From NCBI GenBank assembly GCA_041395385.1, contig JAWLAN010000014.1, forward strand, positions 54,189 through 118,188: DNA of 64,000 nt, given 5' to 3'. Source of the stretch: Gammaproteobacteria bacterium (GTDB taxonomy: Bacteria > Pseudomonadota > Gammaproteobacteria > JAJPIJ01). Of the stretch, positions 26,352 through 64,000 are shown one piece after another. Within the stretch, counting starts at the first letter, position 1. Every line of letters starts with the position of its first letter. The notes below the pieces were generated by a model, which searched no databases, was not told the origin of the DNA, and saw only the letters and a list, made by a program, of their open reading frames with translations. Both the position numbers and the translations under genes were made by a program.

Positions 26352-26362
26352 GGGAGACTGCG

Positions 26363-27795: not shown

Positions 27796-27807
27796 TTAGG
27801 CAGCTAA
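27796..27807. promoter_or_regulatory. second copy of the putative MarR box (TTAGGCAGCTAA), upstream of the NTF2-like gene
   Basis: 'ttaggcagctaa' lies in the 86-nt gap between the marR stop and the NTF2-like start. It matches the core of the palindrome at 28341-28360. Confidence 0.35.
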
Positions 27808-27825
27808 CCATAGCGGCAAAAAAAA

Positions 27826-28329: not shown

Positions 28330-28340
28330 GGCCGCTCATT

Positions 28341-28360
28341 ATAGTTAGGTAGCTAACTAT
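28341..28360. promoter_or_regulatory. putative MarR operator palindrome
   Basis: 'atagttag gtag ctaactat' has 8-nt inverted arms and begins 12 nt upstream of the marR start codon. Confidence 0.45.
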
Positions 28361-29621: not shown

Positions 29622-29683
29622 ATCCCACACAAAGCAACAAAGCATGATCGTTTCGTGTGGGTTTTATTGACTGTATGTGGGAT
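29622..29683. promoter_or_regulatory. three copies of an ATCCCACA/TGTGGGNT motif in the divergent deoR / ABC-transporter promoter region
   Basis: 'atcccaca' at 29622-29629, 'tgtgggtt' at 29656-29663 and 'tgtgggat' at 29676-29683. This is a candidate DeoR operator. Confidence 0.35.
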
Positions 29684-29833
29684 CAGGAGGAAGATGACGC
29701 GGAACGGGCCCCCGGGAAGATTGCGCACGAAGATCGCGCCGCACAAATCCGGATCCTGCTACCTTCAGGCGGGGCTATGCTGTTTTTGCGGGCAGTTCCG
29801 CGGTTACACGAACCAACAGAGGAGGCGTGTCCG

Positions 29834-30784: not shown

Positions 30785-30869
30785 AGCCTAGCGAGTGCCG
30801 ATGAGCGACGGACCGCGGGCCGTTCCTCCCGCGGTCCGTTGAACCCTCGAGAAACGGTCCGCAGGAGCC

Positions 30870-33960: not shown

Positions 33961-33969
33961 CTCGCTGCC

Positions 33970-34857: not shown

Positions 34858-34872
34858 AGGCTGGCGCAGAAC

Positions 34873-37311: not shown

Positions 37312-37345
37312 CGCGCGGCGGCGGGCGGGGAGGACGCGGCGGGCC

Positions 37346-45857: not shown

Positions 45858-45871
45858 TTGATTCATATCAA
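45858..45871. promoter_or_regulatory. perfect FNR-type box TTGAT-TCAT-ATCAA
   Basis: It lies in the 433-nt lower-GC divergent region between pqqA (start 45681) and the molybdoenzyme gene (start 46115). Confidence 0.6.
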
Positions 45872-49085: not shown

Positions 49086-50566
49086 AGGAATTCAGGGTAC
49101 TGCTCATCAACTGCAACACCATGCTGGACACGCTCGTGACCGCCGGCATCGGGATACTGGCCGCGTGCCTGAAGAACAGCGGCGTCGAGGTGCGACTGTT
49201 CGACACCACCTTCTACAGGACCGCAGAGAAGACCGGCGACGAGGCGCGGGCGCAGGCCCTGCAGGTGAGAAAAACCGACTTCGCCGAGCTGGGCATCGTT
49301 CCCGAGGCCGGCGACGTCGTCGAGGACTTCCGCGACCTCGTCGAGTCCTACCGGCCGGATCTCATCGGTCTGTCCTGCATCGAGGTCACCTTCCCGCTCG
49401 GGCTGAGGCTGCTGAACGCGGTGCGCCACACCGGCATTCCGACGATCGCCGGCGGCGTGTATCCGACCTTCGCGCCGGACATCGTCATGCGCCACGCGGC
49501 GATCGACATGGTGTGCGTGGGCGAGGGCGAGCTGCCGCTCATGGAACTGTGCGAGAAGATGCGCCGGGGCGAGGACATCACCGCCATCCGCAACGTCTGG
49601 ATCAAGTGCGACGGCAAGCTCTACAAGAACCCGGTGCGCCCCGGCATCGACATGCGCCAGCTGCCCTACCAGGACTGGGACGTGTACGACCGTCGGCGGT
49701 TCTGGAAGCCCATGGGAGGGAAGATCTCGGTGACCGGCACCTTCGAGATGAACCGCGGCTGCCCCTACACCTGCACCTACTGCATCAACTCCGGGTTCGA
49801 TCAGCTCTACGGCCCGCTGGGCGGCTACTACCGCGAGCAGGACATCGGGCGGCTCATCGACGAGATGCTGGAGAAGAAGGAGAAGTACAACCTCGCCTAC
49901 GTCTACCTCGTGGCGGAGAGCTTTCTCACCACCAGCCGCAAGCGCGTTGAGGAGTTCGCGCGCCGCTACCCGGAGGTCGGACTGCCGTTCTGGGTGGAGG
50001 CGCGCCCGGAGTCGATCTCGACGGCCAAGGTGCAGGTCCTGAAGGACGTCGGCTGCGAGGGGATCAGCGTCGGTGTGGAGAGCGGCAACGAAGACTTGCG
50101 GCGCAACGTGCTGGGCCGCAACGTCGCCAACGACACCATCATCAAGGCCTTCGACCTGCTCGCCGACACCGGCATCCGGGTGAGCGCCAACAACATCATC
50201 GGCTTCCCCACCGAGACGCGCGAGATGATCTTCGAGACCATCGAGCTCGACCGGCGCATCCAGCCGCACGGCGTCATGGTCAGCTTCTTCAGCCCCTACC
50301 GCGGCTGCACCCTGCGCGAGGTCTGCGAGACCGAGGGCTACATCGGCGCGGAGGACATCGCCCTGGACTACCGCCTCGGGCCGACCATGGACATGCCGCA
50401 GTTGCGCCGTCGCGAGCTCGTCGGCCTGCACCGCGCCTTCCCGCTCTACGTCAAGTTCCCGAAGAGCGAGTGGGACAACATCCGGATCTGCGAAGGCGAA
50501 GGTCCGGAGGCGGAGGCGGCGTTCAGCGAGTACGCGCGCCGCTACGTCGAGACTTTCATGCGCTAG
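49082..50566 (+). CDS. B12-binding-domain radical SAM protein
   Basis: The ATG overlaps the upstream stop (ATGA). The N-terminal B12-like domain includes 'VLLINCN...LIGLSC' and 'IAGGVYPT'. The radical SAM motif is 'RGCPYTCTYC'. Confidence 0.85.
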   Translation: MKEFRVLLINCNTMLDTLVTAGIGILAACLKNSGVEVRLFDTTFYRTAEKTGDEARAQALQVRKTDFAELGIVPEAGDVVEDFRDLVESYRPDLIGLSCIEVTFPLGLRLLNAVRHTGIPTIAGGVYPTFAPDIVMRHAAIDMVCVGEGELPLMELCEKMRRGEDITAIRNVWIKCDGKLYKNPVRPGIDMRQLPYQDWDVYDRRRFWKPMGGKISVTGTFEMNRGCPYTCTYCINSGFDQLYGPLGGYYREQDIGRLIDEMLEKKEKYNLAYVYLVAESFLTTSRKRVEEFARRYPEVGLPFWVEARPESISTAKVQVLKDVGCEGISVGVESGNEDLRRNVLGRNVANDTIIKAFDLLADTGIRVSANNIIGFPTETREMIFETIELDRRIQPHGVMVSFFSPYRGCTLREVCETEGYIGAEDIALDYRLGPTMDMPQLRRRELVGLHRAFPLYVKFPKSEWDNIRICEGEGPEAEAAFSEYARRYVETFMR

Positions 50567-51560: not shown

Positions 51561-52563
51561 ATGCGCCCGCGCATTGAGCTGGTGTGCCCGGCCGGCGGCC
51601 TGCCGGCGCTGAAGGCCGCGGTCGACAACGGCGCCGACGCCGTGTACATCGGCTTTCGCGACGGCACCAATGCGCGCAACTTCCCGGGCCTGGGATTCAG
51701 CGCCGAGGAGGCCGCGCAGGGCGTGGACTACGCGCACACGCGCGGCGCGCAGGTGCTGGCGGCGCTCAACACCTACCCGGACACCGAGCGCTGGGGCGCG
51801 GCCACGGCCGCACTCGCGACCGCGGCCTCCGTCGGGGTGGACGCCGTCATCCTCGCCGACCCGGGCCTGATGGCGCACGCCGCGCGCGCGCACCCCGGCC
51901 TGCGGCTGCACCTCTCGGTGCAGGGCTCGGCCACCAACCGCCACGCGATCGCCTTCTATCACCGCCACTTCGGCGTGCGGCGCGTGGTGCTGCCGCGCGT
52001 GCTGTCGCTGGCGCAGGTGCTGAGCCTGGTCGGCAAGGTCCCGGTGGAGATCGGTGTTCTGCTTCGGCAGCCTGGCGTGATGGTCGGGCCGCTGCGCGCT
52101 GTCGGCGTACGTTACCGGCAAGTCGCCCAACGTGCACGGCGTGTGCTCGCCCGCCTCGGCCGTGCGCTGGGAGGAGACTGCCGCGGGCCGGCAGTCGCGC
52201 GTCGGCGGCATGCTGATCGATCGCTACCAGGACGGTCAGCCGGCAGCCTATCCGACCATCTGCAAGGGCCGCTACCGCGTCGGCGACCACGTCTATTACG
52301 CGATCGAGGAGCCCACCAGCCTCAACGTGATCGAGATCCTCCCCGAGCTGGTCCGGGGAGGCGTGGCCGCGCTGAAGGTGGAGGGCCGCCAGCGCGGTCC
52401 CGCCTACGTGGCGCGCGTCACGAAGGTGCTGCGCGCCGCCCTCGATGCCTGCTGCGCCGACCCCGCGCGGTTCACCCCGCGGCAGGAATGGCTGGACGAG
52501 CTCAACTCCATGGCCGAGGGCCGCTGTCACACCCTCGGCGCCTATCACCGCCCATGGCAATGA
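51561..52563 (+). pseudogene. ubiU: UbiU (U32-family O2-independent ubiquinone hydroxylase subunit), disrupted by clustered indels at 52052-52090
   Basis: The N-terminal half is in frame 1: 'ELVCPAGGLPALKAAVDNGADAVYIG...GTNARNF'. The C-terminal half is in frame +1: 'CSPASAVRWEE...LIDRYQDGQPAAYPTICKGRY...LGAYHRPWQ'. The segment for 'FGSLC.M.EGRC' reads 'FGSLA*WSGRC', with a TGA at 52078-52080. Confidence 0.7.
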
Positions 52564-53450
52564 AGCTCTCTCTCGCACCCATACCCTGGTTCTGGGAACG
52601 CGCGCGCGTCTTCGACTTCTACGCGTCGATCGCCGCGACGCCGATCGACATCGTCTATCTCGGCGAGACCGTCTGTTCGAAGCGGCGCGAGCTGCGGCCG
52701 GAGGACTGGCTGCAGATCGCCGCGGCGCTGTCCGAGGCCGGCAAGGAGGCGGTGCTCTCGACGCTGACCCTCATCGAGGCGGAATCCGAGCTCGCGACGC
52801 TGAAGCGCATCGTGGAAAACGGCCGTTACCTGGTCGAGGCCAACGACATGGCCGCCGTGGAGATGCTGAGCGAGCGCGAGCTGCCGTTCGTGATCGGCCC
52901 GCAGGTGAACGTCTACAACGGCGAGACCCTGGCGCTGCTGGCGCGCCTCGGCGCGCGCCGCTGGGTGGTGCCGACGGAGATCTCCAGGGCACAGCTCGCC
53001 GCCCTGCCCGACCGGCGCTTCCTGCAGATGCAGACCGAGGTGCAGATATACGGCGACCTTGCGCTCGCCTACTCGGCGCGCTGCTACACCGCCCGCGCGC
53101 ACAACCTGCAGAAGGACGCCTGCGCCTTCGTCTGCCGCGAGTATCCCGACGGCCTGCCGCTGGCCACCATGGAGGATGAGCCCTTTCTCGTGCTGAACGG
53201 CATCCAGACCCGCTCCGCGGCCGTCTGCGACCTGCTGGCGGATTGGGACGACTTCGGGGCCCTGCAGATCGAGGTCGGCCGCATCGTGCCGCGGTCCACG
53301 GGCACGGCGCGGATCATCGACCTCGCGCACCAGGTGGCCGTGGGCCGCCTGGACGCCGCCGCCGCGGCGCGCGAGCTCGCCGCGCAACGGGCAGCGCCGC
53401 ACTGCAACGGCCACTGGCACGGTGCAGCCGGGATGGAGCAGGTGGGATGA
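52560..53450 (+). CDS. ubiV: UbiV (U32-family partner of UbiU)
   Basis: 'MKLSLAPIPWFWERARVFDFY...YLGETVCSKRR', 'LALAYSARCYTARA...KDAC..VC' and 'VLNGIQT' match my recollection of E. coli YhbV. The ATG overlaps the ubiU stop. Confidence 0.85.
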   Translation: MKLSLAPIPWFWERARVFDFYASIAATPIDIVYLGETVCSKRRELRPEDWLQIAAALSEAGKEAVLSTLTLIEAESELATLKRIVENGRYLVEANDMAAVEMLSERELPFVIGPQVNVYNGETLALLARLGARRWVVPTEISRAQLAALPDRRFLQMQTEVQIYGDLALAYSARCYTARAHNLQKDACAFVCREYPDGLPLATMEDEPFLVLNGIQTRSAAVCDLLADWDDFGALQIEVGRIVPRSTGTARIIDLAHQVAVGRLDAAAAARELAAQRAAPHCNGHWHGAAGMEQVG

Positions 53451-53456
53451 GGGAGG

Positions 53457-53957
53457 CTAGCGCGCGGCGATCGCGGCGCGGGCCCGGCGCAGGCCGCGCA
53501 CCGCATGCCCCGCGATCGGGGCCGGCAGCACCGCGCGCAGGTGCGCCTCCCAGTCGAACTCCTGCGCGTCGAGCAGGTTCTTGACGTGCACGCCGACCTC
53601 GGTGTCACCCTCGATGCACAGCCGGCGCTGGAAGAACAGCGCGTCGGGGTCCTCGCGCCGCGTGGCCAGCCGCAGGAATCCCTCCACGTCGCCGCGGATG
53701 ACGACGTCGGGCGCGCGCGTGTCCACGGCGCGCAGCCGACCGCCATCGATGCGGAAACACACCGTGCGCCTCAGATCGGTGACCTCGATGGCGACGCTGC
53801 GCCCGTCGATCTCGCGCAGGCGCGAGCTGAAGGCCTGGCCGCGCGCGAGGTGGTTGAACAGCAGCGCGCCGGCCGGGGCCTGCAGCGCGCCGGGCACGAT
53901 ACGCAACGACCAGCGCAGCAGTTGCGAGGCGCGTGAGATGCAAGAGGAGGCGGACAT
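53457..53957 (-). CDS. ubiT: UbiT (SCP2-domain ubiquinone biosynthesis accessory factor)
   Basis: The last 166 codons of the 1181-aa track ORF. '[31 protein letters not shown]' matches YhbT 'RKQDPDTLFFQRRLVIEGDTELGLYVKNLMD'. Confidence 0.8.
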
Positions 53958-53994
53958 GCAGATCGCTTTATCGTCCGTCGGCGCGGGCGGCCGG

Positions 53995-54008
53995 TTGATC
54001 CGGATCAG
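53995..54008. promoter_or_regulatory. FNR-type box TTGAT-CCGG-ATCAG in the ubiT/ubiD divergent region
   Basis: It matches 9 of 10 consensus positions. Its centre is about 44 nt upstream of the ubiT ATG, and the box ends 7 nt before the ubiD ATG. Confidence 0.55.
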
Positions 54009-54014
54009 GCGGCG

Positions 54015-55481
54015 ATGATCTTCCGGGACCTGCGCGAGTTCATCGTTTGCCTGGAGGCCATGGGCGATCTGCGCCGCGTTCGCCAGACCCTGGATCCATG
54101 CCTGGAGATCACCGAGGTCTGCCACCGCACGCTGCGCGCCGGCGGACCGGCCCTGCTGTTCGAGCATCCCGCGGGCGGCGAGATGCCCCTGCTCGGCAAC
54201 CTGTTCGGGACGGTGCAGCGCGTGGCGCTGGCGCTGGGCTGCAAGAATACCCGGGAGCTGCGCGAGCTCGGCGAGCTGCTCGCCTTTCTCAAGGAACCGC
54301 GCTGGCCGAACGGCCTGGGCGAGGCCCTGGAGCGGCTGCCGCAGTTCCGCAGGCTGATGCACGTGACGCCGCGCGTGGTCGATCGCGCCGCCTGCCAGGA
54401 GCAGGTGCTGGAAGGCGACGAGGTGGATCTCGCGCGACTGCCGGTGCAGACCTGCTGGCCGGGTGACGCCGGTCGGCTCATCACCTGGGGCATGGTGATC
54501 ACGAGGGGCCCTGCCAAGGAGCGGCTGAACATCGGCATCTACCGCCAGCAGGTCATCGCGCGCAACAAGGTGATCATGCGCTGGCTCCCGCACCGCGGCG
54601 GCGCGATCGACTTCCAGGAGTGGTGCGCGGCCCGCCCGGGCGAGGCGTTTCCGGTCGCGGTGGCCATCGGCGCCGACCCGGCGACCATGCTGGCGGCGGT
54701 GACGCCGATCCCGGACACCATCTCGGAGTTCCAGTTCGCCGGCCTGCTGCGCGGCGCCCGCAGCGAGGTCGTCCGCTGCCGGGGAGTACCGCTGCAGGTC
54801 CCCGCCTCCGCGGAGATCGTGCTGGAGGGCCACATCACTCCCGGCGAGGAGGCGCTGGAGGGCCCGTTCGGCGATCACACCGGCTACTACAATGCGCAGG
54901 CTCGCTTTCCCGTCTTCACCATCGATCGCATCACGCATCGCGGCGGTCCGATCTATCTGGGCACCTACATGGGTCGCTCGCCGCACGACGAACCCTCGGT
55001 CATGGCCTCGGCCCTGAACGAGGTATTCGTGCCGATCCTGCGCAAGGCATTCCCGGAGATCGTGGACTTCTACCTGCCGCCGGAGGCCTGCTCCTATCGG
55101 GTGGCGGTGGTGAGCATCCGCAAGCGCTACGCCGGCCATGCCAGGCGCATCATGTTCGGCGTTTGGTCCTACCTGCGCCAGTTCACCTACACGAAGTTCG
55201 TGATCGTCACCGACGAGGACATCGACGTACGGGACTGGCAGGAGGTGATGTGGGCGATCGCCACGCGCATGGACCCGGCGCGCGACACGGTGCTGGTGGA
55301 GAACACGCCGATCGATTACCTGGATTTCGCCAGCCCCGTGGCCGGCCTCGGCTCCAAGGCCGGCTTCGACGCCACCAGCAAGTGGCCGGGGGAGACGCAG
55401 CGGGATTGGGGACGCCCGATCGCCATGAGCGAGGCCGTCAAGCGGCGCATCGACGCGATCTGGGGGGAGCTCGGCCTCTGA
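54015..55481 (+). CDS. ubiD: 4-hydroxy-3-polyprenylbenzoate decarboxylase UbiD
   Basis: 488 aa. Motifs include '[18 protein letters not shown]', 'GNLFGT', 'YRQQVI' and '[11 protein letters not shown]'. Confidence 0.9.
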
Positions 55482-55661
55482 GCCGCCGGCCGCGCGCGGG
55501 TGGCCGGACCCGCCATCCAGGCCGCGCCTCGGCAGCACCGGGCGATGGCGATCGCGGCCGGGCTCCATGGGCGCGCGGAGATCTTGATCCGGGTCATTTA
55601 CGCGGCCGACCGCAGGCGTATCACGCCTCCTTACAGTCTCCCCGGAGCGGAGGACCCGATC

Positions 55662-57602
55662 GTGCCCGACGCCGCGATGCCGCAGGCGGGGCTTCCGCCG
55701 GGCCGGCCGGTGCCCGTGCGGCTGCTCCTCGTCAACCCGCGCTTCCCTGAAAGCTTCTGGAGCTTTCGCTGGGCACTCGGCCGCATCCTGCCGGGCAAGC
55801 GCGCCCTGAATCCTCCCCTCGGGCTCGCCACGCTGGCGGCCCTGTGCCCGCCGCACTGGTCCGTGGAGATCGTCGACGAGAACGTCGAGACCGTGCCGCT
55901 GCATCCGGCGGCCGATCTCGTCGGCGTCTGCGGCATGGGGGTGCAGTTCCCTCGTCAGCAGGAGCTGCTGCGCTACTATCGCGGCAAGGGCTATTACGTC
56001 GTGGCCGGAGGCAGCTACGCCTCCCTGTGCCCCGAGCGCTACACGGAGACTGCCGACACCGTCGTCGCCGGCGAGGCCGAGAACATCTGGCCCGCGTTCT
56101 GCTCGGATTACGCGTGCGGGCGGCCCAGGCGGCTCTACAAGGAAGAGGGCATCGTGGATCTGCGGCGCTCGCCCGTGCCGCGGTTCGATCTCCTGAAACT
56201 CGGGCGCTACGCGACCGTCGGCGTGCAGTTCTCCCGCGGCTGCCCCTACCGCTGCGACTTCTGCGACATCATCGTGATGTTCGGCCGCCGCCCGCGGACC
56301 AAGGGCCTCGAACAGGTCGCCGCAGAGCTCGACCTGCTGCGCTCGCTGGGCGTCAGCAACCTCTTCTTCGTCGACGACAACCTCATCGGCAACCGGCCCA
56401 AGGCCAGGGAGCTGCTCGACTTCCTGGCCCGGTACCAGCAACGCCACGGCTACCGCTTCCGATTCGGAACGCAGGTCTCGCTGAACCTCGCCGAGGACCG
56501 CGATCTCATGCGGCTGCTCCGCGAGGCCAACTTCAACTGGGTCTTCGTCGGCATCGAATCGCCGGACGAGGCCAGCCTGCGGGAGATGAACAAGGTCCAG
56601 AATCTCCGCCACGACATGCTCGAGGCCGTACGCACGGTCTACGCACATGGCATCGACGTGCTGGCCGGATTCATCGTCGGCTTCGATCACGACACGGCGG
56701 AGACCTTCGAGCGTCAGCACCGCTTCATCGTGGCCTCCGGCATCCAGGTGGCGATGATCGGTCTGCTGACGGCGCTGCCCAGGACGCCGCTGTACGCGCG
56801 GCTCGCTCTCGAGGGCCGCCTGGTCGAGTCCGACGGGTCGCATTGCGACAATGCCAAGCCGCGGACCAACCTGGTGCCGAAGCGCATGAGCTATGCGGAG
56901 ATGATCGCCGGATACAAGTCGCTCTGCCGCCGCCTGTCGGTCGATCGACGCATCGCCCAGCGCATCCGCAACAAGCTGCGCTATCTCGGGGGTCCCTGCC
57001 ACAGCGGGTACTCGCTCGGATCACAAATTCGAATCGTGGCCCGCCTGGTCTTCCATGGATTGCTGCGGGCGCCCGCGAGCCGCCTGCCGTGGTTTCTGCA
57101 CTCCATGATGGCCTGCCCGCCCCGGGCCTGGGCACAGCTGGTCGCCGACTGGATAGCGGGCCTTTCCATCCAGGACTACGTGCAGCGGCACCTCGGCGAT
57201 CCATCCGTCACGGAACTGCGCCGTGCCCGGTCCACCGCCGAGTCGATCCGCCGCCGCTGGTCGCACTGTCTGCAGCGCGGGAGCCTGCAGGTCGCCGTCG
57301 AGGACGGCACTGCCGGCTGCAGCGTAATGCTCGGTTTCAAACGGGGAATCGATCGCCGCTTCTTCGCCGGGGTGGCGGGCTGTCTCAGGCGGCTCCTGCG
57401 GCGCTCCGCCGTGAGCATTACGCTGCGGGTCGATGCCATGAGCCATGGTGAATGCGCCGGACTGGCGCGTCTGCTCCGTCAGCTCGCCGCCGACGGCGAT
57501 CGAATCGCCGTCTACGTGGACGAGAGCATCCGTCACCTGCTTCCGATCGACTCCTCGGTGTTTCACCTCGTTCTAAACGCGCCCGGGGCCGCCTCGGACT
57601 GA
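55662..57602 (+). CDS. B12-binding-domain radical SAM protein with a DUF4070-like region and an extra C-terminal domain
   Basis: Motifs include 'LLLVNPRFPESFW...PPLGLATLAA', 'SRGCPYRCDFCD' and 'GIESPDEASLREMNK'. I chose the GTG at 55662, 8 nt after GGAGG; the ATG at 55677 is an alternative. Confidence 0.8.
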   Translation: MPDAAMPQAGLPPGRPVPVRLLLVNPRFPESFWSFRWALGRILPGKRALNPPLGLATLAALCPPHWSVEIVDENVETVPLHPAADLVGVCGMGVQFPRQQELLRYYRGKGYYVVAGGSYASLCPERYTETADTVVAGEAENIWPAFCSDYACGRPRRLYKEEGIVDLRRSPVPRFDLLKLGRYATVGVQFSRGCPYRCDFCDIIVMFGRRPRTKGLEQVAAELDLLRSLGVSNLFFVDDNLIGNRPKARELLDFLARYQQRHGYRFRFGTQVSLNLAEDRDLMRLLREANFNWVFVGIESPDEASLREMNKVQNLRHDMLEAVRTVYAHGIDVLAGFIVGFDHDTAETFERQHRFIVASGIQVAMIGLLTALPRTPLYARLALEGRLVESDGSHCDNAKPRTNLVPKRMSYAEMIAGYKSLCRRLSVDRRIAQRIRNKLRYLGGPCHSGYSLGSQIRIVARLVFHGLLRAPASRLPWFLHSMMACPPRAWAQLVADWIAGLSIQDYVQRHLGDPSVTELRRARSTAESIRRRWSHCLQRGSLQVAVEDGTAGCSVMLGFKRGIDRRFFAGVAGCLRRLLRRSAVSITLRVDAMSHGECAGLARLLRQLAADGDRIAVYVDESIRHLLPIDSSVFHLVLNAPGAASD

Positions 57603-57712
57603 CCGGCGCGCGCGAACGGCAGCCGGCCGCTGCGTGCGCATCGCGCTGCTCGACCGGCGTGCGACTGACTCGGGCTGTCGTCGACGCGGCGGGCACTGCA
57701 CGCCGGCACACC

Positions 57713-57726
57713 TTGATACGGATCAA
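57713..57726. promoter_or_regulatory. perfect FNR-type box TTGAT-ACGG-ATCAA upstream of the PAS-SARP regulator
   Basis: Its centre is about 73 nt upstream of the ATG at 57793. 'gataat' at 57766-57771 could be a -10 element. Confidence 0.6.
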
Positions 57727-57792
57727 CGTGCGAGCGGGCTTGAACTGCTCGCGGCGTGAACTCAAGATAATGGGTTTTTTGGGGGAGGTCGG

Positions 57793-58962
57793 ATGTCCCG
57801 CGGCCGTCGTCCCGATCTGGTGGAATCTGCCTCGGACGCCGCCCTCGCCGTCGGCGAGGATCTGCGCGTGCTCGCCGGCAACGCGCCCGCCCAGCGGCTG
57901 CTGGGTTACTCCCGTCACGAGATGCAGGGACGGCGCTGCTATGAAGTGCTGCGGGCGGTGCTGCCCACCGGCGCGCCCCTGTGCGGCCCGTCCTGTGACG
58001 GGATTACGTGCGTCGCCCAGTGCAAGCCTTTCTCCGTGCCTGCCTGCCTGGTGCTGCGCAGGGACGGTCAGTGGTTCCCCGTGGCGTTGAGCACCCTCAT
58101 CCTGCCCGGCGCGGTGCGATCGACGGTTCGCATGTTGATACTCATCAGACCGCGCAGCGACCTCGCCGAGGCTGCGGCGTTCGGCTCCTCTCTTCGCATC
58201 TTCACGCTGGGCCGCTTCAGGCTGGTCTTCCGCGGCCGGGACCTGGCCGTGGAGAAGTGGGTGCGCAAGCACGCGGTTCAACTGCTCAAGCTGCTCGCGA
58301 GCTGCCCGGGCCACGCCTTGCATCGCGGGCGCCTGATCGAACGCCTGTGGAGCGAGGCAACCGAGAAGCGCGGGCGCGAGCGCCTGAAGGTCACCGTGTG
58401 CTACCTGCGCCGCCAGTTGATGTCGGTCGGACTGGGCCGCGACGTGGTCGCCAGGGAAGGCGAGTCCTACCTGCTCAGGTGCGAGGCCATGTGGATCGAC
58501 GCGCGCACGTTCGAGCGCCTGGCGGTGCAAGGCATGCGCCTCGCCCAGCAGCACGAGCTCGAGCGCGCCCTGCATTGCTACGAAGACGCCCTGGCGCTCT
58601 ACAAGGGCGATTACCTCGAAGAGGATCTCTACGCCGACTGGTGCGCGGAGGAACGCGAGCGGCTGCGCGAGCTCTGCCTCGAGGTGATCGCGCGGACGGC
58701 GGCCATCCACGCCCGGCTGCGACGCTACGAGCAGGCCGTGCAGCTCTGCCGGCGCGGGCTCATCATGGAGCCGTGCCGCGAGAGCATGCACAGAACGCTG
58801 ATGATGTACCTGTTCCAGCTCGGGCGGCGCAGCTCGGCGCTGGCGCAGTATCGGCGCTGTCGCGAGCTGCTGCGGCGGGAGTTCGGGGTCGAGCCGCTGC
58901 CGATAACCCAGGCCCTTTATCGCCGCATTCTCGAGTCCGGCGCCCTGTCCTTCGACACCTGA
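57793..58962 (+). CDS. transcriptional activator: Cys-rich PAS-like sensor, OmpR-type winged helix and BTAD (SARP family)
   Basis: The PAS-like part is 'LAGNAPAQRLLGYSRHEMQGRRCYEVL', with 'CGPSCDGITCVAQC'. The winged helix is 'LRIFTLGRFRLVFRGRDL'. The BTAD part includes 'ALALYKGDYLEEDLYADW', 'MYLFQLGRRSSALAQYRRCRELLRREFGVEP'. Confidence 0.8.
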   Translation: MSRGRRPDLVESASDAALAVGEDLRVLAGNAPAQRLLGYSRHEMQGRRCYEVLRAVLPTGAPLCGPSCDGITCVAQCKPFSVPACLVLRRDGQWFPVALSTLILPGAVRSTVRMLILIRPRSDLAEAAAFGSSLRIFTLGRFRLVFRGRDLAVEKWVRKHAVQLLKLLASCPGHALHRGRLIERLWSEATEKRGRERLKVTVCYLRRQLMSVGLGRDVVAREGESYLLRCEAMWIDARTFERLAVQGMRLAQQHELERALHCYEDALALYKGDYLEEDLYADWCAEERERLRELCLEVIARTAAIHARLRRYEQAVQLCRRGLIMEPCRESMHRTLMMYLFQLGRRSSALAQYRRCRELLRREFGVEPLPITQALYRRILESGALSFDT

Positions 58963-59173
58963 TCGCCCGGCGACCGCCCGCCGCTCGAACCCGCAATCCC
59001 GCTGCGCATGATCGAGGCGGGCGGCGTTCCCCGCCATCCCCCCGCGGCCCGATCTCCGCCGCGTCTCGCGCCCGCTCCGCCCGTCCGATCGCCACCCGTC
59101 ACACTCGCCGGCGCGGCCATGCGCGCGCGCCGATCAACGCCTGCGCAACGGTGATGCGCCGGGCTCCCGTCGT

Positions 59174-59192
59174 TGTTACCGGACTGTTACCG
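59174..59192 (+). promoter_or_regulatory. tandem direct repeat TGTTACCG x2 with 11-nt periodicity just upstream of a -10-like 'cataca' (candidate SARP binding site)
   Basis: 'TGTTACCGgacTGTTACCG'. The second heptamer ends 7 nt before 'cataca' (59199-59204). The small ORF starts at 59239. Confidence 0.45.
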
Positions 59193-59238
59193 CCGCGCCA
59201 TACACAGTGACTTCAACTCGAGGTCGCGTGCGAGAGCG

Positions 59239-59496
59239 ATGAAGCCGGACGACGACGCTGCGGCATCCTTCGTGGTGCGGATCTGGATGGAACGGACGAC
59301 GAACGGGGAGCCGGCGTGGCGCGGGCACATACGCCACGTCCAGGGCGAGAGCGAGTGCTACTTTCGCGATCTCGGCGAGATGCGCGGGTTCGTCGAGCGG
59401 CTGAGCGGCGTACGCATGGCCTGCCAGCCCACGAGAAGAAAGAGGAGTCAGCGACATGGCGACGCCATCGGCGCGGAAGGGGGTTCGGATGCTTGA
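59239..59496 (+). CDS. small hypothetical protein (85 aa)
   Basis: 'MKPDDDAAASFVVRIWMERTTNGEPAWRGHIRHVQGESECYFRDLGEMRGFVERL'. GC3 is high. Its 3' end contains the SD for the next gene, so the two are probably translationally coupled. Confidence 0.5.
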   Translation: MKPDDDAAASFVVRIWMERTTNGEPAWRGHIRHVQGESECYFRDLGEMRGFVERLSGVRMACQPTRRKRSQRHGDAIGAEGGSDA

Positions 59497-61267
59497 ACGG
59501 TCACCGGCGGCGTCGGCAGCGCGCGCGGCCACGGTGCTGATCGTGGCGACGCTGCCGGGGCTCGCCGCCGCCCAGGGCCTGCCGCCGCCGACGCCCGATT
59601 ACGCGGCGCCGGCGCTCGTGGACAGCCGGCTGGCGGTGTGGGTGGCCGCGCAGTTGCATCTCATGTTCGCCGCCTTCGTCCTGGCCGTCCCGATGTTCGC
59701 GCTGTTCATCGAGTACGTGGGCTGGCGTGCGCGGAAGACCGACCCCGCCTCCGCGCGGCGGCACGACTGGCTCGCCCACGAGATGGCAAGCCTGCTGCCC
59801 ATCGCCTACTCGCTGACGGCGATCACCGGGGCGGCTCTCGGCTTCCTGCTGTTCACCGCCTACCCCCGATTCATGAACTATCTGAGCGGGGTGTTCGGCC
59901 CGACCTTCATCGTCTACCCGCTGTTCTTCATCGCCGAGACCCTTTGCCTCTACTTCTGGTACTACGGCTGGGAGCGCATGCAGGGCGAGCGCAAGTGGCT
60001 GCATCTCGTGCTGGGCCTCGCGCTCAACGTCTTCGGCACCGTCGTCATGTTCATCGCCGACGCCTGGGCCACTTTCATGATGACGCCGGGCGGCGTCGAC
60101 GCGCAGGGGCAGCTGGTCAGCCTCTACGACGCCGTGTGGAACCCCGGCTGGATGCCTCTGAACGTGCACCGACTCATCGCCAACATCACCTTCGGCGCGC
60201 TGCTCTGCTCCGGTTACGCGGCATACCGCTTCCTGCTCGCCCGCACGCGCGCCGAGCGCGCGCTGTACGACTGGATGGGATACACGGGCAACCTGATCGC
60301 GCTGTTTACGATGCTGTTTCTCCCGTTCGCGGGCTACTACTTCGGCTTCGAGCTGTTCGCCTTCTCGGCGACCTACGGCGTGACGCTGATGGGCGGCGTG
60401 CTGTCGTGGCTGTTCATCATCCAGGCGATCGTGATCGCCACGCTGTTCATCGGCGCTGCGTACTACTCCTGGCTCGGTCTGCTGCGCATCCCCGGCTCCG
60501 AGCGGCAGCAGGCCTGGTCCTCCGTGTTCAACGTCCTGCTCATCGGCGGCTTCATGGTCTGGGCCACGCCCCACACCATGGCCGCCTCGCTCGAGGAGTC
60601 CACCGGCGGCTTCCATCCCGTGCTCGGCGCGCTCGGGGTCATGGCGCCGAAGATGATCGCGGTGACGCTGATCCTCGTGGTCCTCTATGGCAGCTACCTG
60701 CTGTACCGGCGCGCCGGCAAGGTGATCACGGTGTCCTGGGGCAGGACCGGGGAGCGGATCCAGTGGAGCCTGGTCGGCCTGACCGGGCTCGTGATCACGG
60801 CGCTCGGCATCTACGGCTACTTCGCGCCGGCCGAGGTCCGCATCCAGACCTCGATCTGGCAGATCGTCGTCCTCATGGCCGGGATCGTGGCGACCTTCAT
60901 ACTCGATCAGTTCCTGATGCGCGGCGCGCGCACCGTCGCGGACGTGCAGTGGGGCGGGATGCCCGGCCGCGGGCAGTACGTGCTGGTCGCGCTCGCCGTC
61001 GTCATCGTGTGGCTGATGGGGCTGATGGGGTATGCACGCAGCGGCGCGCGGCTCAACTGGCACGTCTTCGGCATCATGGAGGACACCTCCGCCGGCGCCG
61101 GGCTGCCCTCCCTGGGTGAGGCGGCCCTCGTCATCACGCTGATCACCGCGATCTTCTTCGCCCTGCTCGCGGTCGGCTTCTACATCTCCGCGCTCGCCCG
61201 TGGAGAAGGCGCGGACGCCGCGGAGCTCGAGTCCGCCGGGCTGCTCGCCGAGGAGGAACGGGCATGA
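59456..61267 (+). CDS. cytochrome bd ubiquinol-oxidase subunit-I-like polytopic membrane protein
   Basis: 603 aa with about 14 TM segments and an ATG preceded by 'aagaggag'. The N-terminal 'AAQLHLMFAAFVLAVPMF' resembles the CydA helix 1 His context, and the C-terminal 'GYARSGARLNWHVFGIM' resembles the CydA 'GRQPW' region. Confidence 0.6.
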   Translation: MATPSARKGVRMLERSPAASAARAATVLIVATLPGLAAAQGLPPPTPDYAAPALVDSRLAVWVAAQLHLMFAAFVLAVPMFALFIEYVGWRARKTDPASARRHDWLAHEMASLLPIAYSLTAITGAALGFLLFTAYPRFMNYLSGVFGPTFIVYPLFFIAETLCLYFWYYGWERMQGERKWLHLVLGLALNVFGTVVMFIADAWATFMMTPGGVDAQGQLVSLYDAVWNPGWMPLNVHRLIANITFGALLCSGYAAYRFLLARTRAERALYDWMGYTGNLIALFTMLFLPFAGYYFGFELFAFSATYGVTLMGGVLSWLFIIQAIVIATLFIGAAYYSWLGLLRIPGSERQQAWSSVFNVLLIGGFMVWATPHTMAASLEESTGGFHPVLGALGVMAPKMIAVTLILVVLYGSYLLYRRAGKVITVSWGRTGERIQWSLVGLTGLVITALGIYGYFAPAEVRIQTSIWQIVVLMAGIVATFILDQFLMRGARTVADVQWGGMPGRGQYVLVALAVVIVWLMGLMGYARSGARLNWHVFGIMEDTSAGAGLPSLGEAALVITLITAIFFALLAVGFYISALARGEGADAAELESAGLLAEEERA

Positions 61268-62103
61268 ACGGGATGCTGCGCCTGTTCACGCCGGCGATCC
61301 CGGCGGCCGTGGCCGTGGGTTTCTTCGTCTCCTTCGCCAACTGGATCCCGCAGACGCACTGGACGCCGCCAAAGAAGCTCGCGCTCACCGCCGATCTCAC
61401 GCCGGCGGAGCTCGCCAGGGCGGGCGCCACCATCGTCCGCGAGCGCGGCTGCATGGCCTGCCACACGATGGAGCCCGGCGCGGGCGTCAAGGGCGGTGGC
61501 CGCGGGCCGAACCTCGACGGCATCGCCGCGCGCCGCGCGCAGGGCGCCGCCGGCGCGGCGGCCAACGCGGTGGATTACCTCGTGCAGAGCCTCTACGAGC
61601 CCGGCGCCCACCTCGTGGAGGGATACCCGAACATCATGCCACCGGCGACCGGCGCCCCCGCCAAGCTCGGCTACGAGGAGGTGACCGCGGTGGTGAACTA
61701 CCTGCAGTCACTCGGGGGCACGGCGTCGGTGAAGATCGGCGAACTGCCCAGACCTGCCGTTGCCGGCACCGCCGCGGCGGCTGAGCCCGCGACCGCGCCG
61801 GCCGTCCCCGCCGCCGCCGGCGGCGCGCAGTTGCTGACCGACATGGGCTGCGTGGCCTGCCACAGCTCGGCGCCCGGCCAGCAGGGGATCGGGCCGGCGC
61901 TCGACGCCGACAGTATCAGGACGGCGGCCGGCGAGCGCCGGATGTCGCCCGAGGCCTACCTCATCGAATCCATCGTCGAGCCGGGGGCATATCAGCGCGA
62001 GGGCTTTCAGGCCGGGCTGATGCCGGCCGACTACGGCGCCAAGCTGACGGCGGCGCAGCTCAAGTCGCTCGTGGACTACCTGCTCGGGGAGGCCGGCTCA
62101 TGA
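61264..62103 (+). CDS. membrane-anchored dihaem c-type cytochrome
   Basis: One N-terminal TM segment and two CxxCH motifs ('CMACH' and 'CVACH'), separated by an Ala/Pro linker. It overlaps the stop of the bd-like gene. Confidence 0.8.
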   Translation: MNGMLRLFTPAIPAAVAVGFFVSFANWIPQTHWTPPKKLALTADLTPAELARAGATIVRERGCMACHTMEPGAGVKGGGRGPNLDGIAARRAQGAAGAAANAVDYLVQSLYEPGAHLVEGYPNIMPPATGAPAKLGYEEVTAVVNYLQSLGGTASVKIGELPRPAVAGTAAAAEPATAPAVPAAAGGAQLLTDMGCVACHSSAPGQQGIGPALDADSIRTAAGERRMSPEAYLIESIVEPGAYQREGFQAGLMPADYGAKLTAAQLKSLVDYLLGEAGS

Positions 62104-62879
62104 AACCCGGTGCCCTCGCCCGCCTCTGCGCGGCCACTCCTCTGCCGACCGGCGTGTTCCTGGTCGCCGCGGGCATCTACGTCGTCCTGAAGCTGGTGCG
62201 GCCGGTGATCCCGCACAGCGTCATCCTGCTGTACATGGGCTTCGTCGTCCTCGGCCTCGTCATCCACGTGACGCTGCGCGACGAACGGATCGAGCGCTTC
62301 AAGGCGTTCTTCGTCGAACAGCGGCCCGGTGAACCGCGCGCCATCCGCGCGCAGCGCTGGGGCCTGCTTGCCGTCCTGCCCCTGTTGCTCGGCTGGTGGG
62401 TATACGACGCCTACCGCCCGCGCTACGCCCCGCCGGTGGAGATCTTCCAGCGCCATCCCACCGTCGGCGAGGAGGTGCTAGGCCGCATCGAGGTCCCGCA
62501 GTGGATCGCAGCCGCGCCGGCGCAGTGGAACGCCGAGCTCGTCAGCGAGGGCAAGAAACTCTACGAGGCCAACTGCGCCGTCTGCCACGGCGAGAAGCTC
62601 GACGGACAGGGCGCGGCGGCCGAGGGGTTCCGCTATCCGATCCGCCCCGCGAACTTCCAGGACCCGGGCACGATCGCCCAGCTCACGCTGCCGTACATGT
62701 ACTGGCGGCTGACCGTCGGCGGCATCCAGAACCAGTTCAACAGCGCGATGCCGCGCTGGGTCGCCCCGTCGGACAACCCCGACGTCTCCACGCTGCACAG
62801 TTACGACTTCACGGAAGAGGAAGCGTGGAAGGTGATCGCCTATCTCTACAAGGCCACCGGCCACGAGCCGAGGCGCTGA
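62100..62879 (+). CDS. membrane-anchored (about 3 TM) monohaem c-type cytochrome
   Basis: 'CAVCHGEKLDGQG' follows three hydrophobic helices. There is an ATGA overlap with the upstream gene. Confidence 0.8.
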   Translation: MKPGALARLCAATPLPTGVFLVAAGIYVVLKLVRPVIPHSVILLYMGFVVLGLVIHVTLRDERIERFKAFFVEQRPGEPRAIRAQRWGLLAVLPLLLGWWVYDAYRPRYAPPVEIFQRHPTVGEEVLGRIEVPQWIAAAPAQWNAELVSEGKKLYEANCAVCHGEKLDGQGAAAEGFRYPIRPANFQDPGTIAQLTLPYMYWRLTVGGIQNQFNSAMPRWVAPSDNPDVSTLHSYDFTEEEAWKVIAYLYKATGHEPRR

Positions 62880-62901
62880 CACGGCAGCGAGGACACGAAC
62901 G

Positions 62902-64000
62902 ATGAGCGAGCGGGAGTTCACGCGAAGGCAGTTCCTGAAGCGTACCGGCGTGCTCGCGGGCGGGGCGCTCGCCGGCTTGTCGGCGGATCTCGCGTTCGCG
63001 GGCCAGGCGCTCGCGCCGGTGCCGGACATCGCCAATCCGCTCGAGTACTACCCGGATCGCGACTGGGAGGAGGTCTATCGCGATCAGTACCGCTACGACC
63101 GCAGCTTCACCTACATCTGCGCGCCGAACGACACCCACATGTGCCGCGTGCGCGCCTTCGTGCGCAACGGCGTCATGGTCCGCATGGAACAGAACTACGA
63201 TCATCAGAAGTACAAGGACCTGTACGGCAACCAGGCGACCCAAGCCTGGAATCCGCGCATGTGCCTGAAGGGCTTCACCATGCACCGGCGCGTCTACGGT
63301 CCCTATCGCGCCAAGGGCCCCATGATACGCAAGGGCTGGAAGGAGTGGGCCGACGATGGCTTTCCAGCCCTGTCCGACGATCCGGCGCTGCGCAGCAAGT
63401 ACCGGTTCGACGCCCGCGGCACCGATCAATTCGTGCGCGCAAGCTGGGAGGAGGCGAGCGGTTACCTCGCCCGCGCGCTGATCGCCATCGCCAGGACCTA
63501 CAGCGGCGAGGAAGGCCGCCGGCGGCTGATCGAGAAGGACGGCTACCCCGAGGAGATGCTCGAGCACTGGGAGGACGCGGGCACCCGGGTGATGAAACTC
63601 GGCAGTTCACTGCCGCTGCACGGCGTGGTGGGCAAGTTCGGCATCTTCCGCATGGCCAACCTGATCGGACTGATCGACGCCCATGTGCGCGGGGTGGGGC
63701 CGGAGGAGGCCCGCGGCGCGCGCGAGTGGTCCGAGTACACGTGGCGCGGCGACCAGGCGCCCGGGCAGCCCTTCGTCCACGGCCTGCAGACCTCCGACAT
63801 CGATCTGAACGACCTGCGCTTCAGCAAGTTCACGGTGCAGGTCGGCAAGAACCTGATCGAGAACAAGATGCCGGAGGCGCACTGGCTGACCGAGATCATG
63901 GAGCGCGGCGGCCGCATCGCGGTGATCGCTCCCGAGTACAACCCCTCGGCGAGCAAGGCCGACTACTGGATCTCGGTGCGGCCGGGACTCTCCGACACGG
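62902..64000 (+). CDS. Tat-exported type II DMSO-reductase-family molybdoenzyme alpha subunit (NarG/NxrA-like), partial
   Basis: Not in the ORF track because it is open to the right edge. My translation is 'MSEREFTRRQFLKRTGVLAGGALAGL...', giving a Tat motif. 'FTYICAPNDTHMCRVRAFVRNGVMVRMEQNYD' gives C-x3-D-x3-C where NarG has H-x3-C-x3-C. 'YTWRGDQAPGQPFVHGLQTSD' and 'RIAVIAPEYN' are also present. Confidence 0.8.
   Translation, partial: MSEREFTRRQFLKRTGVLAGGALAGLSADLAFAGQALAPVPDIANPLEYYPDRDWEEVYRDQYRYDRSFTYICAPNDTHMCRVRAFVRNGVMVRMEQNYDHQKYKDLYGNQATQAWNPRMCLKGFTMHRRVYGPYRAKGPMIRKGWKEWADDGFPALSDDPALRSKYRFDARGTDQFVRASWEEASGYLARALIAIARTYSGEEGRRRLIEKDGYPEEMLEHWEDAGTRVMKLGSSLPLHGVVGKFGIFRMANLIGLIDAHVRGVGPEEARGAREWSEYTWRGDQAPGQPFVHGLQTSDIDLNDLRFSKFTVQVGKNLIENKMPEAHWLTEIMERGGRIAVIAPEYNPSASKADYWISVRPGLSDT

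Follow-up and report, generated by a model that had tools for sequence, protein, structure and literature searches.

Which reaction does a periplasmic molybdoenzyme catalyze when its gene directly follows those of a cytochrome bd-like membrane protein and two anchored cytochromes c, and with which electron carriers would it be coupled? The question is raised by positions 57,713–64,000 of a 64,000-nucleotide stretch of gammaproteobacterial DNA (contig JAWLAN010000014.1; the whole stretch is called the window here). We read this region as the regulatory part and 5′ half of a ~13-gene operon that, by comparison with related loci, would encode a periplasm-facing, membrane-tethered nitrite oxidoreductase (NXR). 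Our preferred reading, to which we assign a probability of roughly 45%, is that this horizontally spread operon specifies a reversible NXR–quinone supercomplex operating mainly as an anaerobic nitrate reductase. A sequence-only reading of the same DNA had proposed a gene order running from an FNR box to an alpha subunit with a twin-arginine translocation (Tat) signal, and every part of it was recovered in place on the plus strand, with a direct repeat in addition:

57713–57726, plus strand: FNR/CRP-type box TTGATACGGATCAA, a perfect TTGAT-N4-ATCAA
57793–58962, plus strand: regulator of 389 amino acids with PAS, OmpR-type winged helix and BTAD (SARP-type) domains (Pfam, NCBIfam)
59174–59192, plus strand: direct repeat TGTTACCG-gac-TGTTACCG (period 11 nt), candidate SARP site and operon promoter
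59239–59496, plus strand: open reading frame (ORF) of 85 amino acids, first gene of the structural operon (conserved in related loci)
59456–61267, plus strand: bd-like polytopic membrane protein of 603 amino acids (Pfam Cyt_bd_oxida_I, fold match)
61264–62103, plus strand: membrane-anchored diheme cytochrome c of 279 amino acids (two Cytochrom_C domains)
62100–62879, plus strand: membrane-anchored monoheme cytochrome c of 259 amino acids (Cytochrom_C)
62902–64000 (window end), plus strand: 5′ third of nxrA, 366 of 1176 codons (Tat signal, FS0 motif, NxrA match)

The nxrA fragment in the window is 100% identical to the first 366 residues of a 1176-residue protein (P0121), evidently the full-length product of the window's own gene as judged from this match, and a 97%-identical full-length NxrA is encoded on a 12-kb metagenome contig (L001; L numbers denote the loci fetched for comparison). 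This protein scored 1634 bits against NxrA of Kuenenia stuttgartiensis (7b04_B), compared with 184 bits for PcrA, 124 bits for EbdA (ethylbenzene dehydrogenase) and ~100 bits for Escherichia coli NarG; the Kuenenia score is thus nine times that of PcrA and 13 times that of EbdA. A Tat motif, TRRQFLK, occupies residues 7–13 (TIGR01409, 19.8 bits against a cut-off of 16.7), and the FS0 motif, C73-x3-D77-x3-C81 plus C121 (3Cys/1Asp), lies entirely within the window fragment. In the alignment to Kuenenia NxrA, residues C73, N76, D77, C81 and D284 correspond to Cys67, Asn70, Asp71, Cys75 and Asp275, and these five together with C121 are invariant in 16 diverse homologs; N76 and D284, too, lie in the window fragment. 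The 3Cys/1Asp FS0, the substrate-positioning Asn and the Mo-ligand Asp have all been described for the Kuenenia enzyme, KsNXR (PMC8387239). Identity of the window NxrA to the Nitrospina and Brocadia proteins amounts to 61–66%. On these alignments the alpha subunit is a Nitrospina/anammox-type periplasmic NxrA and, because its active-site residues are those of NxrA, the substrate is narrowed to nitrite/nitrate.

These results uphold the placement of the alpha subunit by the sequence-only reading as periplasmic, NarG/NxrA-like and carrying a C-x3-D-x3-C motif, and they keep it apart from SerA, ClrA and DdhA, with a full-length match to Kuenenia NxrA and PcrA as the next best hit. That reading had also left the module's oxyanion broad (nitrite, chlorate, selenate or another); the active-site residues favor nitrite/nitrate over the other substrates. 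An identity as a NarGHI enzyme was rejected on the Tat signal, the Asp-type FS0 (not H-x3-C-x3-C) and an EB_dh-type gamma subunit instead of NarI, and the NarG equivalog model returned 83–135 bits against a cut-off of 1084. A Ser-, Clr-, Pcr-, Ddh- or Ebd-type identity was rejected on the score ratios relative to Kuenenia NxrA, and the NCBIfam equivalog cut-offs were not reached for any named enzyme. In a neighbor-joining tree of 101 NxrA sequences the window protein falls into a 26-member clade of cassette-borne proteins with short branches and 100% bootstrap support, nested in a radiation with Nitrospina, other Nitrospinota, Brocadia and Ca. Subterrananammoxibius. The family is large, with at least 600 matching stretches from many phyla in one-genome-per-species bacterial and archaeal genomes, in keeping with the Microflora Danica study, where 665 'Nitrospira-clade periplasmic NxrA/NarG' sequences were counted (PMC12823411).

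The window stops inside nxrA, and the 3′ half of the operon was therefore read from the 94–97%-identical contigs L001, L007, L008 and L220, the last three of which belong to the unclassified gammaproteobacterial metagenome-assembled genomes (MAGs) GAM_33 and GAM_9R, the nearest relatives of the window, from a partial-nitritation/anammox reactor (PMC9202391). Downstream of nxrA these relatives encode, in order, a small ORF, NxrB (624 bits to 7b04_A), a NarJ/TorD-type chaperone, NxrC, a Usp-PCP_red protein, an AhbD-like protein and a HemY-like protein, so that the beta, gamma and chaperone genes are all present there. NxrC is of the EB_dh type (E = 1e-18 to 7b04_C), and its Met138 and Lys291 align with Met155 and Lys305, the heme b ligands of KsNXR-C (PMC8387239). 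Every cassette NxrC, as well as the group-2 alternative NxrC of stand-alone bd-like modules (see below), ends in a C-terminal transmembrane (TM) helix followed by a basic stretch; this helix is absent from the NxrC of Nitrospina, anammox bacteria and Planctomycetota. The gene directly after nxrC encodes tandem Usp and PCP_red domains according to Pfam; an initial assignment of this gene as radical-SAM/SPASM, by analogy with L004, was rejected, the radical-SAM gene being the next one. The latter encodes a radical-SAM/SPASM/PCP_red protein, which can be aligned from one end to the other with AhbD/NirJ2 heme-synthesis enzymes (308 bits, under the equivalog cut-off), and it is followed by a HemY-like enzyme of the protoporphyrinogen/coproporphyrinogen-oxidase family (TIGR00562, 259 bits against a cut-off of 98).

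The small ORF between nxrA and nxrB (~85–90 residues, cytoplasmic; L008 16974–17246) occupies the same place in most periplasmic NXR loci of the set L061–L139. It carries the motif DPMELVGV...CLxEEYLLxGW...RPCFxATHxIY at 30–60% identity across the periplasmic NXR family, including Nitrospina, has no Pfam or NCBIfam match, and may encode an assembly factor. On the GAM_9R contig (L220, 21413–23531), genes for an Iron_transport (PF10634) protein, an OprB porin and a cupredoxin lie 3′ of the cassette; the nxr clusters of Nitrospina and Kuenenia likewise include cupredoxins (PMC3578206).

Within the window, start and stop codons overlap as ATGA at 61264 (bd-like/diheme cytochrome c) and 62100 (diheme/monoheme cytochrome c), in line with the translational coupling that had been suggested, and a GAGGA ribosome-binding site precedes the nxrA start at 62902. 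All ORFs of the locus are coding-like in their GC content at third codon positions (0.82–0.93, in a genome of 69% GC). Since the gene order is moreover invariant in ~30 loci, these overlaps argue for a single transcription unit.

The 603-residue membrane protein is bd-like and probably carries b-hemes. Pfam Cyt_bd_oxida_I matched its N-terminal half only (residues 57–293, 7.7e-18), and alignment to Geobacillus CydA (5doq_A; 5.7e-11 over residues 57–259) equates H68 with His21, H238 with His186 and E161 with Glu108, and places Tyr154 where CydA has the essential Glu101. In E. coli numbering, H68, H238 and E161 correspond to His19, His186 and Glu107, and Tyr154 stands in the Glu99 column. All four residues are invariant in 39 homologs, which have five invariant histidines in all. 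The AlphaFold2 model (pLDDT 78.5, pTM 0.78) contains about 13–14 TM helices, and Foldseek's ten top PDB matches are without exception CydA/AppC chains (probability 1.00, E from 3e-8 to 2e-5), so that both the CydA-like fold and the heme ligands anticipated by the sequence-only reading are found. The model has no long periplasmic loop after the H238 helix, the TM helices being continuous there, and no cydB is adjacent: in the window, as in all related loci, what comes next is the pair of cytochrome c genes. A canonical cytochrome bd was therefore rejected: the Q-loop, Glu99 and cydB are all missing. The start of the 603-residue protein is ambiguous, since a close relative is annotated 25 residues shorter.

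The diheme cytochrome c contains two Cytochrom_C domains (1.6e-18) with CMACH at residue 63 and CVACH at residue 196, behind an N-terminal hydrophobic helix at residues 4–25. The monoheme protein (Cytochrom_C, 4.6e-9) has CAVCH at residue 159 and hydrophobic segments at residues 10–61 and near 87–102. Wherever the contigs of related loci reach far enough, the diheme gene directly follows the bd-like gene and the monoheme gene comes next. Of 80 distant stand-alone loci from Gemmatimonadota, NC10 and Rokubacteria, 51 have the Usp-PCP_red and AhbD-like genes together with the bd-like gene, independently of nxrA. Because these two genes travel with the bd-like gene, gene linkage suggests a dedicated tetrapyrrole or heme maturation step for the bd-like module. 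The pair lies at 16868–20884 in L220, at 6903–9622 and 20360–21688 in L004 and at ~4700–8000 in L140–L219, and a HemY-type oxidase is also linked to the bd-like gene in both cassette variants. In the open-access literature we found no link between bd-like proteins and AhbD-like enzymes.

To place this arrangement, we mapped synteny by tblastn across 219 fetched loci. The full cassette (bd-like protein, diheme and monoheme cytochromes c, NxrA, small ORF, NxrB, NarJ, NxrC) occurs in ~30 metagenomic loci in invariant order, all of them from uncultured MAGs or metagenome contigs, and its hosts comprise Gammaproteobacteria, Burkholderiales and other Betaproteobacteria, Hyphomicrobiales, Xanthobacteraceae, Rhodobacteraceae and one Dehalococcoidia MAG (L036) from the eastern tropical North Pacific oxygen-deficient zone. 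Habitats are partial-nitritation/anammox reactors, groundwater, aquifers, soils and the oxygen minimum/deficient zone. Between classes the cassettes remain 73–86% (bd-like), 75–84% (NxrA) and 75–85% (NxrB) identical, and from the cross-class identities of 73–86% we conclude that the cassette has spread horizontally. It comes in two sub-variants, one with the PAS-BTAD regulator and 85-residue ORF upstream and the Usp, AhbD-like and HemY-like genes downstream (Gamma- and Alphaproteobacteria, Dehalococcoidia) and one, mostly in Burkholderiales, with the HemY-like and Usp-PCP_red genes divergently upstream. Three cassette loci (L033, L036 and L038/L065) keep this gene order and 78–83%-identical bd-like and NxrB proteins, but their NxrA is only 66–68% identical and branches elsewhere in the tree, a pattern that points either to replacement of the catalytic subunit or to a second, older lineage of the cassette.

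Each half of the cassette also exists by itself. NXR-only loci, with the order (NxrC-)NxrA-small ORF-NxrB-NarJ(-NxrC), are found in Planctomycetota, Acidobacteriota, Acidimicrobiia, Nitrospina, anammox bacteria and others, and no bd-like gene occurs within 10 kb of them. Bd-like loci number at least 572, and the stand-alone ones of NC10, Rokubacteria and Gemmatimonadota share the order Usp-PCP_red, AhbD-like, bd-like, diheme and monoheme cytochrome c, often with an anchored EB_dh protein. Among the best 80 loci of each of two genome scans for bd-like genes, none came from Nitrospira, Nitrospina or Kuenenia. On this comparative evidence, the window cassette is an operon-level fusion of an NXR module and a bd-like membrane module.

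We found no paper describing the cassette architecture in the open-access literature, and could not find a published description of the fused mobile cassette, the anchored NxrC, the FNR/PAS-SARP/TGTTACC control, the 85-residue protein or the heme-gene linkage. The module is less exotic than the sequence-only reading had supposed, given that periplasmic NXR in proteobacterial MAGs has already been published (PMC9306079) and that the cassette recurs in ~30 contigs.

Two regulatory layers precede the structural genes. The box TTGATACGGATCAA is centred ~74 nt upstream of the regulator ATG; perfect TTGAT-N4-ATCAA sites occur twice in the window compared with 0.01 expected, and L001, L008 and L019 each have a perfect box at the same place 5′ of their ortholog of the regulator (L019 has two), so that three of four close gammaproteobacterial loci share it. 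At FNR-dependent promoters the box is centred at −41.5 or −61.5 from the transcription start. Neither a sigma-70 nor a terminator consensus was found in 57550–59500. The regulator matches BTAD (7e-31, residues 235–380), Trans_reg_C (8.9e-7, residues 159–226) and PAS_4 (1.9e-5) in Pfam, and SARP models plus sensory_box in NCBIfam. Five cysteines of its PAS domain (C49, C64, C68, C73 and C85) are conserved in 12 orthologs from Gamma- and Alphaproteobacteria; by analogy with NreB, a redox sensor of the Fe-S or thiol kind would be compatible with this arrangement.

The second layer is the repeat TGTTACCG, present twice at 11 nt start to start ~47 nt upstream of the first structural gene; the direct repeat is unique in the window, with 0.04 expected at up to two mismatches. 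The consensus TGTYACC-N4-TGTYACC was found in 14 of 220 fetched loci, spanning Gamma- and Alphaproteobacteria, each time just 5′ of the 85-residue ORF and with a PAS-BTAD gene present, and near-variants occur in most of the remaining PAS-BTAD loci. Classical SARP operators in Streptomyces are tandem repeats one helical turn (11 nt) apart near the −10 region, and by this analogy the TGTTACC repeat is likely the binding site of the PAS-SARP protein and the promoter of the structural operon. The betaproteobacterial cassette variant has an NtrC-type system nearby, and no sigma-54 promoter was found upstream of it.

The 85-residue protein has a core, SFVxRIWLE...WRGHxxHVQ...F, that is conserved in 17 loci. 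A word-indexed homolog search returned one near-identical protein only, whereas an exhaustive HMMER search found 356 representative clusters at E ≤ 1e-3. Its AlphaFold2 model is a beta3-alpha fold (core pLDDT >93) without a PDB match, and the protein has no Pfam or NCBIfam match. L070, a short contig of another gammaproteobacterial MAG, lacks a bd-like gene but has a more distant nxrA (65% identical); divergently upstream of this nxrA are a Usp-PCP_red gene and a homolog of the 85-residue protein (1955–2101, minus strand; 69% identity in 49 residues). The protein is thus not strictly tied to bd-like genes.

Immediately upstream of the regulator side of the cassette lie ubiU/ubiV, an SCP2/UbiT-like gene and ubiD (51561–55481, plus strand; NCBIfam UbiV 368 bits, UbiU partial), which constitute the O2-independent ubiquinone biosynthesis set; the arrangement is kept in L220 (GAM_9R), and the SCP2-like ORF lies near 53457–53960 on the minus strand. 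Because these genes adjoin the cassette and both regulatory layers point the same way, expression at low or zero oxygen is indicated. A gene for a B12-binding radical-SAM protein with DUF4070 (55500–57602, plus strand) separates ubiD from the regulator in the window, L001 and L007; its absence from L008 and L220 marks it as a variable insertion. Another gene of the B12 radical-SAM type is found at 48827–50566 of the window. The window's other perfect FNR box, TTGATTCATATCAA (45858–45871), stands ~250 nt 5′ of the likely start (MTARIERSD...) of an unclassified molybdenum bis(pyranopterin guanine dinucleotide) enzyme (46115–48241, plus strand). That enzyme lacks a Tat signal, falls below all NCBIfam cut-offs with DmsA/YnfE- and Fdh-like proteins as best matches, and may be a second anaerobically induced molybdoenzyme.

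As to the host, the window carries genes for a PQQ-dependent dehydrogenase (858–2642, minus strand), PqqE (44109–45257, minus strand) and a betaine/choline cluster (29657–38143, plus strand) with OpuAC, an ABC ATPase, a choline-kinase-like gene, a DAO+GCV_T dimethylglycine/sarcosine-type dehydrogenase and ETF. The PQQ dehydrogenase and the betaine/dimethylglycine catabolism genes argue for a heterotroph, and dnaG, rpoD, tsaD and plsY place the locus on a chromosome. A tRNA-Met gene (22308–22383) lies directly 3′ of rpoD, and the adjoining ~22400–29000, with a GC content of 0.63–0.66 compared with ~0.70 and few ORFs of high third-position GC, may be an island integrated at the tRNA.

We propose the following working model. 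NxrA would be exported by the Tat system together with NxrB, and nitrite and nitrate would be interconverted at the Mo-bisPGD site. Electrons would pass between this site and FS0 (3Cys/1Asp), FS1–4 in NxrB and the Met/Lys heme b of NxrC, held at the membrane by its C-terminal helix, and from there over the three c-hemes of the two anchored cytochromes to the b-hemes of the bd-like protein, which would exchange electrons with the quinone pool. At low O2, FNR would act at the box upstream of the regulator gene, and the PAS-SARP protein would then bind the TGTTACC repeats and drive the operon. We infer the carrier order beyond NxrC, the binding of FNR and SARP, and the catalytic direction; the wiring to the quinone pool, which the sequence-only reading had likewise suggested, we infer for a protein in which the canonical Q-loop and quinol-binding residues are absent.

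The reaction of characterized NXR is reversible (PMC8387239), and we regard flow from quinol to nitrate in this facultatively anaerobic heterotroph, as a Nap-like, non-electrogenic step of anaerobic respiration, as slightly more likely than nitrite oxidation. This preference follows from the FNR control, which resembles that of nar and nap operons, and from the heterotrophy of the host, which leaves no obvious need for reverse electron flow. It is also favored by the reactor of DTUPRO3, a MAG whose locus L015 carries the bd-like end of the cassette: nitrate production there was fully accounted for by anammox (PMC9306079).

Several points weigh against this reading. The direction cannot be read from sequence, and every characterized member of the clade oxidizes nitrite in vivo. 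DTUPRO3 also has narGHI, nirS, norBC, nosZ and the Calvin–Benson–Bassham cycle (PMC9306079), and alongside narGHI a second nitrate reductase would seem redundant. The bd-like protein, with neither the Q-loop nor the quinol-binding residues of CydA (PMC3578206) and, in its alignment and model, Tyr for Glu99/101, offers no identified quinone site; an O2-reducing or other specialized heme center would also fit its five invariant histidines and the presence of linked AhbD-like and HemY-like genes. The FNR box is absent from L007 and from the alphaproteobacterial cassettes, and where it stands relative to the start codon is not a clean match to the spacing of either class I or class II. For NxrB, NxrC and the accessory genes the evidence comes from the 94–97%-identical relatives only, and the NxrA tree is midpoint-rooted and contains no Nitrospira, Nitrotoga or Nar outgroup.

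These points leave room for a nitrite-oxidizing function, and as a tentative possibility the cassette may be a plug-in nitrite-oxidation module for facultatively anaerobic heterotrophs or denitrifiers at very low or no O2, whose electron sink would be either the bd-like protein as a new terminal oxidase or the host's own NO2−, NO and N2O reductases. The first of these sinks would make the cassette a self-contained micro-aerobic nitrite oxidase, in which electrons pass through NxrC and the cytochromes c to a novel high-affinity oxidase and a single mobile operon gives a heterotroph an additional source of proton-motive energy from nitrite. We consider this possible but doubtful. The bd-like protein keeps the His19 and Glu107 equivalents, three other histidines and the Tyr in the Glu99 column are likewise invariant, and the AhbD-like and HemY-like genes that travel with the bd-like gene across phyla hint at a special heme; nonetheless, neither a copper site nor O2 chemistry is inferable from its sequence. 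FNR-type activation at low O2 is typical of high-affinity oxidases as well, although FNR and a Cys-rich PAS domain, probably both O2-labile, point to anoxia over micro-oxia. A bd-like paralog has been proposed as the terminal oxidase of Nitrospira, but it is a different paralog with Cu-binding residues, and the cluster type represented in the cassette, with two cytochromes c and an alternative NxrC, is the one proposed to interact with quinone (PMC6606698). The characterized members of the clade are nitrite oxidizers (PMC8387239, PMC3578206), the habitats of the cassette (anammox reactors, groundwater, oxygen minimum zones) are nitrite-rich and micro-oxic, and DTUPRO3 already possesses NarGHI; on the other hand, the DTUPRO3 reactor showed no net oxidation of nitrite other than that by anammox (PMC9306079).

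With the second sink the cassette would support nitrite dismutation, nitrite-derived electrons passing through the cytochrome c pool to the host's own NirS/NirK, Nor and Nos while the bd-like protein balances them with quinone. Such a metabolism would reconcile anoxia-type regulation with an enzyme of a nitrite-oxidizing clade, and all parts of the cassette face the periplasm and are cytochrome c-based, as denitrification enzymes are. DTUPRO3 does combine nirS, norBC and nosZ with the cassette, but no nir, nor or nos genes were found in the window or the fetched flanks, and no organism is known to grow in this way. Dismutation has been proposed, without a known organism, for the eastern tropical North Pacific zone in which apparently anaerobic nitrite oxidation was measured (PMC8114937, PMC11373643) and from which the cassette copy L036 derives; against this, anammox NXR explains part of the signal, and according to recent work the signal of oxygen minimum zones comes mainly from low-O2 Nitrospinota (PMC11373643). 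We therefore regard dismutation as improbable. Activity on another substrate (chlorate, perchlorate, selenate, dimethylsulfide or a hydrocarbon), as in other periplasmic type II DMSO-reductase enzymes, would fit the shared superfamily, the alpha-beta-delta-gamma set with an EB_dh gamma subunit and the unreached equivalog cut-offs, yet it is very improbable in view of the NxrA score ratios and identities given above, the retention of the NXR Asn, the Mo-ligand Asp and the Asp-ligated FS0, and the absence of cld or other pathway-specific genes from the neighborhood of the cassette in the related loci and their flanks.

NXR makes almost all nitrate on Earth, and the respiratory link of the periplasmic type, the role of the bd-like protein and the control of direction are the questions that the cassette touches. 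The known hosts (Nitrospira, Nitrospina and anammox bacteria) are slow-growing and genetically intractable, whereas the cassette packs a regulator, a candidate operator, membrane and catalytic modules, a chaperone and heme-maturation genes into one operon that has already moved repeatedly between Alpha-, Beta- and Gammaproteobacteria and Chloroflexi. [quoted passage not shown] The cassette is carried by dozens of lineages that are not nitrifiers, from anammox reactors, aquifers and soils as well as an oxygen-deficient zone, and gene-based surveys that equate Nitrospira-clade nxrA with nitrifiers will therefore miscount. If the cassette oxidizes nitrite at very low O2, it bears on the control of nitrogen-removal processes and on unexplained 'anaerobic' nitrite oxidation in the ocean. 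If it is a plug-in module, there would be a large unrecognized guild of non-nitrifier nitrite oxidizers in anammox reactors, aquifers and oxygen-deficient zones, with the bd-like protein, matured by its own AhbD-like and HemY-like enzymes, as the key component. Were it merely another periplasmic nitrate reductase, it would be of specialist interest.

Among known systems, canonical CydA/AppC shares with the bd-like protein the N-terminal helix fold and the His19, His186 and Glu107 equivalents; the bd-like protein differs in lacking the Q-loop and cydB, in carrying Tyr for Glu99/101 and ~five extra TM helices, and in its c-type cytochrome partners. SerABC, ClrABC, PcrABCD and haloarchaeal pNar (NarB/NarC) have an alpha-beta-gamma(-delta) composition, Tat export, an EB_dh-type heme b gamma subunit and a separate heme-protein electron supply. 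They provide a functional analogy for flow from quinol to nitrate, although the cassette alpha subunit is far closer to NxrA and its membrane partner is bd-like rather than bc1-like or NapC-like.

Nitrospira/anammox-clade periplasmic Nxr has been reported from MAGs of a partial-nitritation/anammox reactor (PRO3, PRO6, PRO11, PRO12, CFX1, CFX9 and ARM1) on the basis of NxrA phylogenetic placement only, with the statement that its function, nitrite oxidation or nitrate reduction, is unknown (PMC9306079); the operon structure, bd-like fusion, regulators, anchored NxrC and heme-maturation genes are not described there. Closest in its enzyme is K. stuttgartiensis NXR (7B04; cluster kustd1699–1713, 15 genes), whose three subunits are alike over their full length and which shares the Tat-exported NxrA, the 3Cys/1Asp FS0, the Asn70/Asp275 equivalents and the Met/Lys heme b of NxrC. 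The Kuenenia cluster also includes a bd-like protein and mono- and diheme cytochromes c (PMC3578206). Kuenenia differs in its soluble NxrC and its NXR-T-dependent tubules in the anammoxosome, compared with a membrane-helix NxrC, a proteobacterial host and no NXR-T homolog seen for the cassette. The bd-like genes directly precede nxrA in the cassette, whereas Brocadia and Subterrananammoxibius have none in the fetched flanks (≤10 kb, short on some contigs).

The membrane half is closest to the stand-alone modules of NC10/Methylomirabilota, Rokubacteria and Gemmatimonadota (L040–L060, L140–L219) and to Nitrospira. The stand-alone modules share the gene order and a 44–50%-identical bd-like protein but have no nxrA within 8–10 kb, whereas the cassette inserts nxrA-small ORF-nxrB-narJ between the monoheme cytochrome c and NxrC. 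Beside NXR in Nitrospira, Nitrospina and Kuenenia, the bd-like protein has 14 TM helices, keeps the heme-b ligands, has its Q-loop replaced by helices, lacks quinol-binding residues and clusters with mono- and diheme cytochromes c and an alternative NxrC; the cluster is conserved in Nitrospira, in N. moscoviensis it is among the 40 most transcribed genes, and the usual proposal for Nitrospira is that it anchors NXR and links it to the quinone pool (PMC3578206, PMC6606698). The sequence-only reading had associated bd-like proteins with the Nitrospira/anammox/Nitrotoga type of NXR; for Nitrospira and anammox bacteria this agrees with the literature (PMC3578206, PMC6606698). The NXR of Nitrotoga forms a separate clade (PMC12823411). 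The Nitrospira cluster 'bd-like_3 / two cytochromes c / alt_NxrC_2' of N. defluvii and N. moscoviensis, matched here by its published description (PMC6606698), consists of the same parts as the membrane module of the cassette: a bd-like protein with a CydA-like N-terminal half, membrane-bound mono- and diheme cytochromes c, and an EB_dh-type gamma subunit anchored in the membrane. In Nitrospira, nxrAB and the membrane cluster occupy separate loci in an obligate chemolithoautotroph with the reductive tricarboxylic acid cycle, whereas the cassette unites them in one operon of a heterotrophic host, under an FNR box and a SARP-type regulator.

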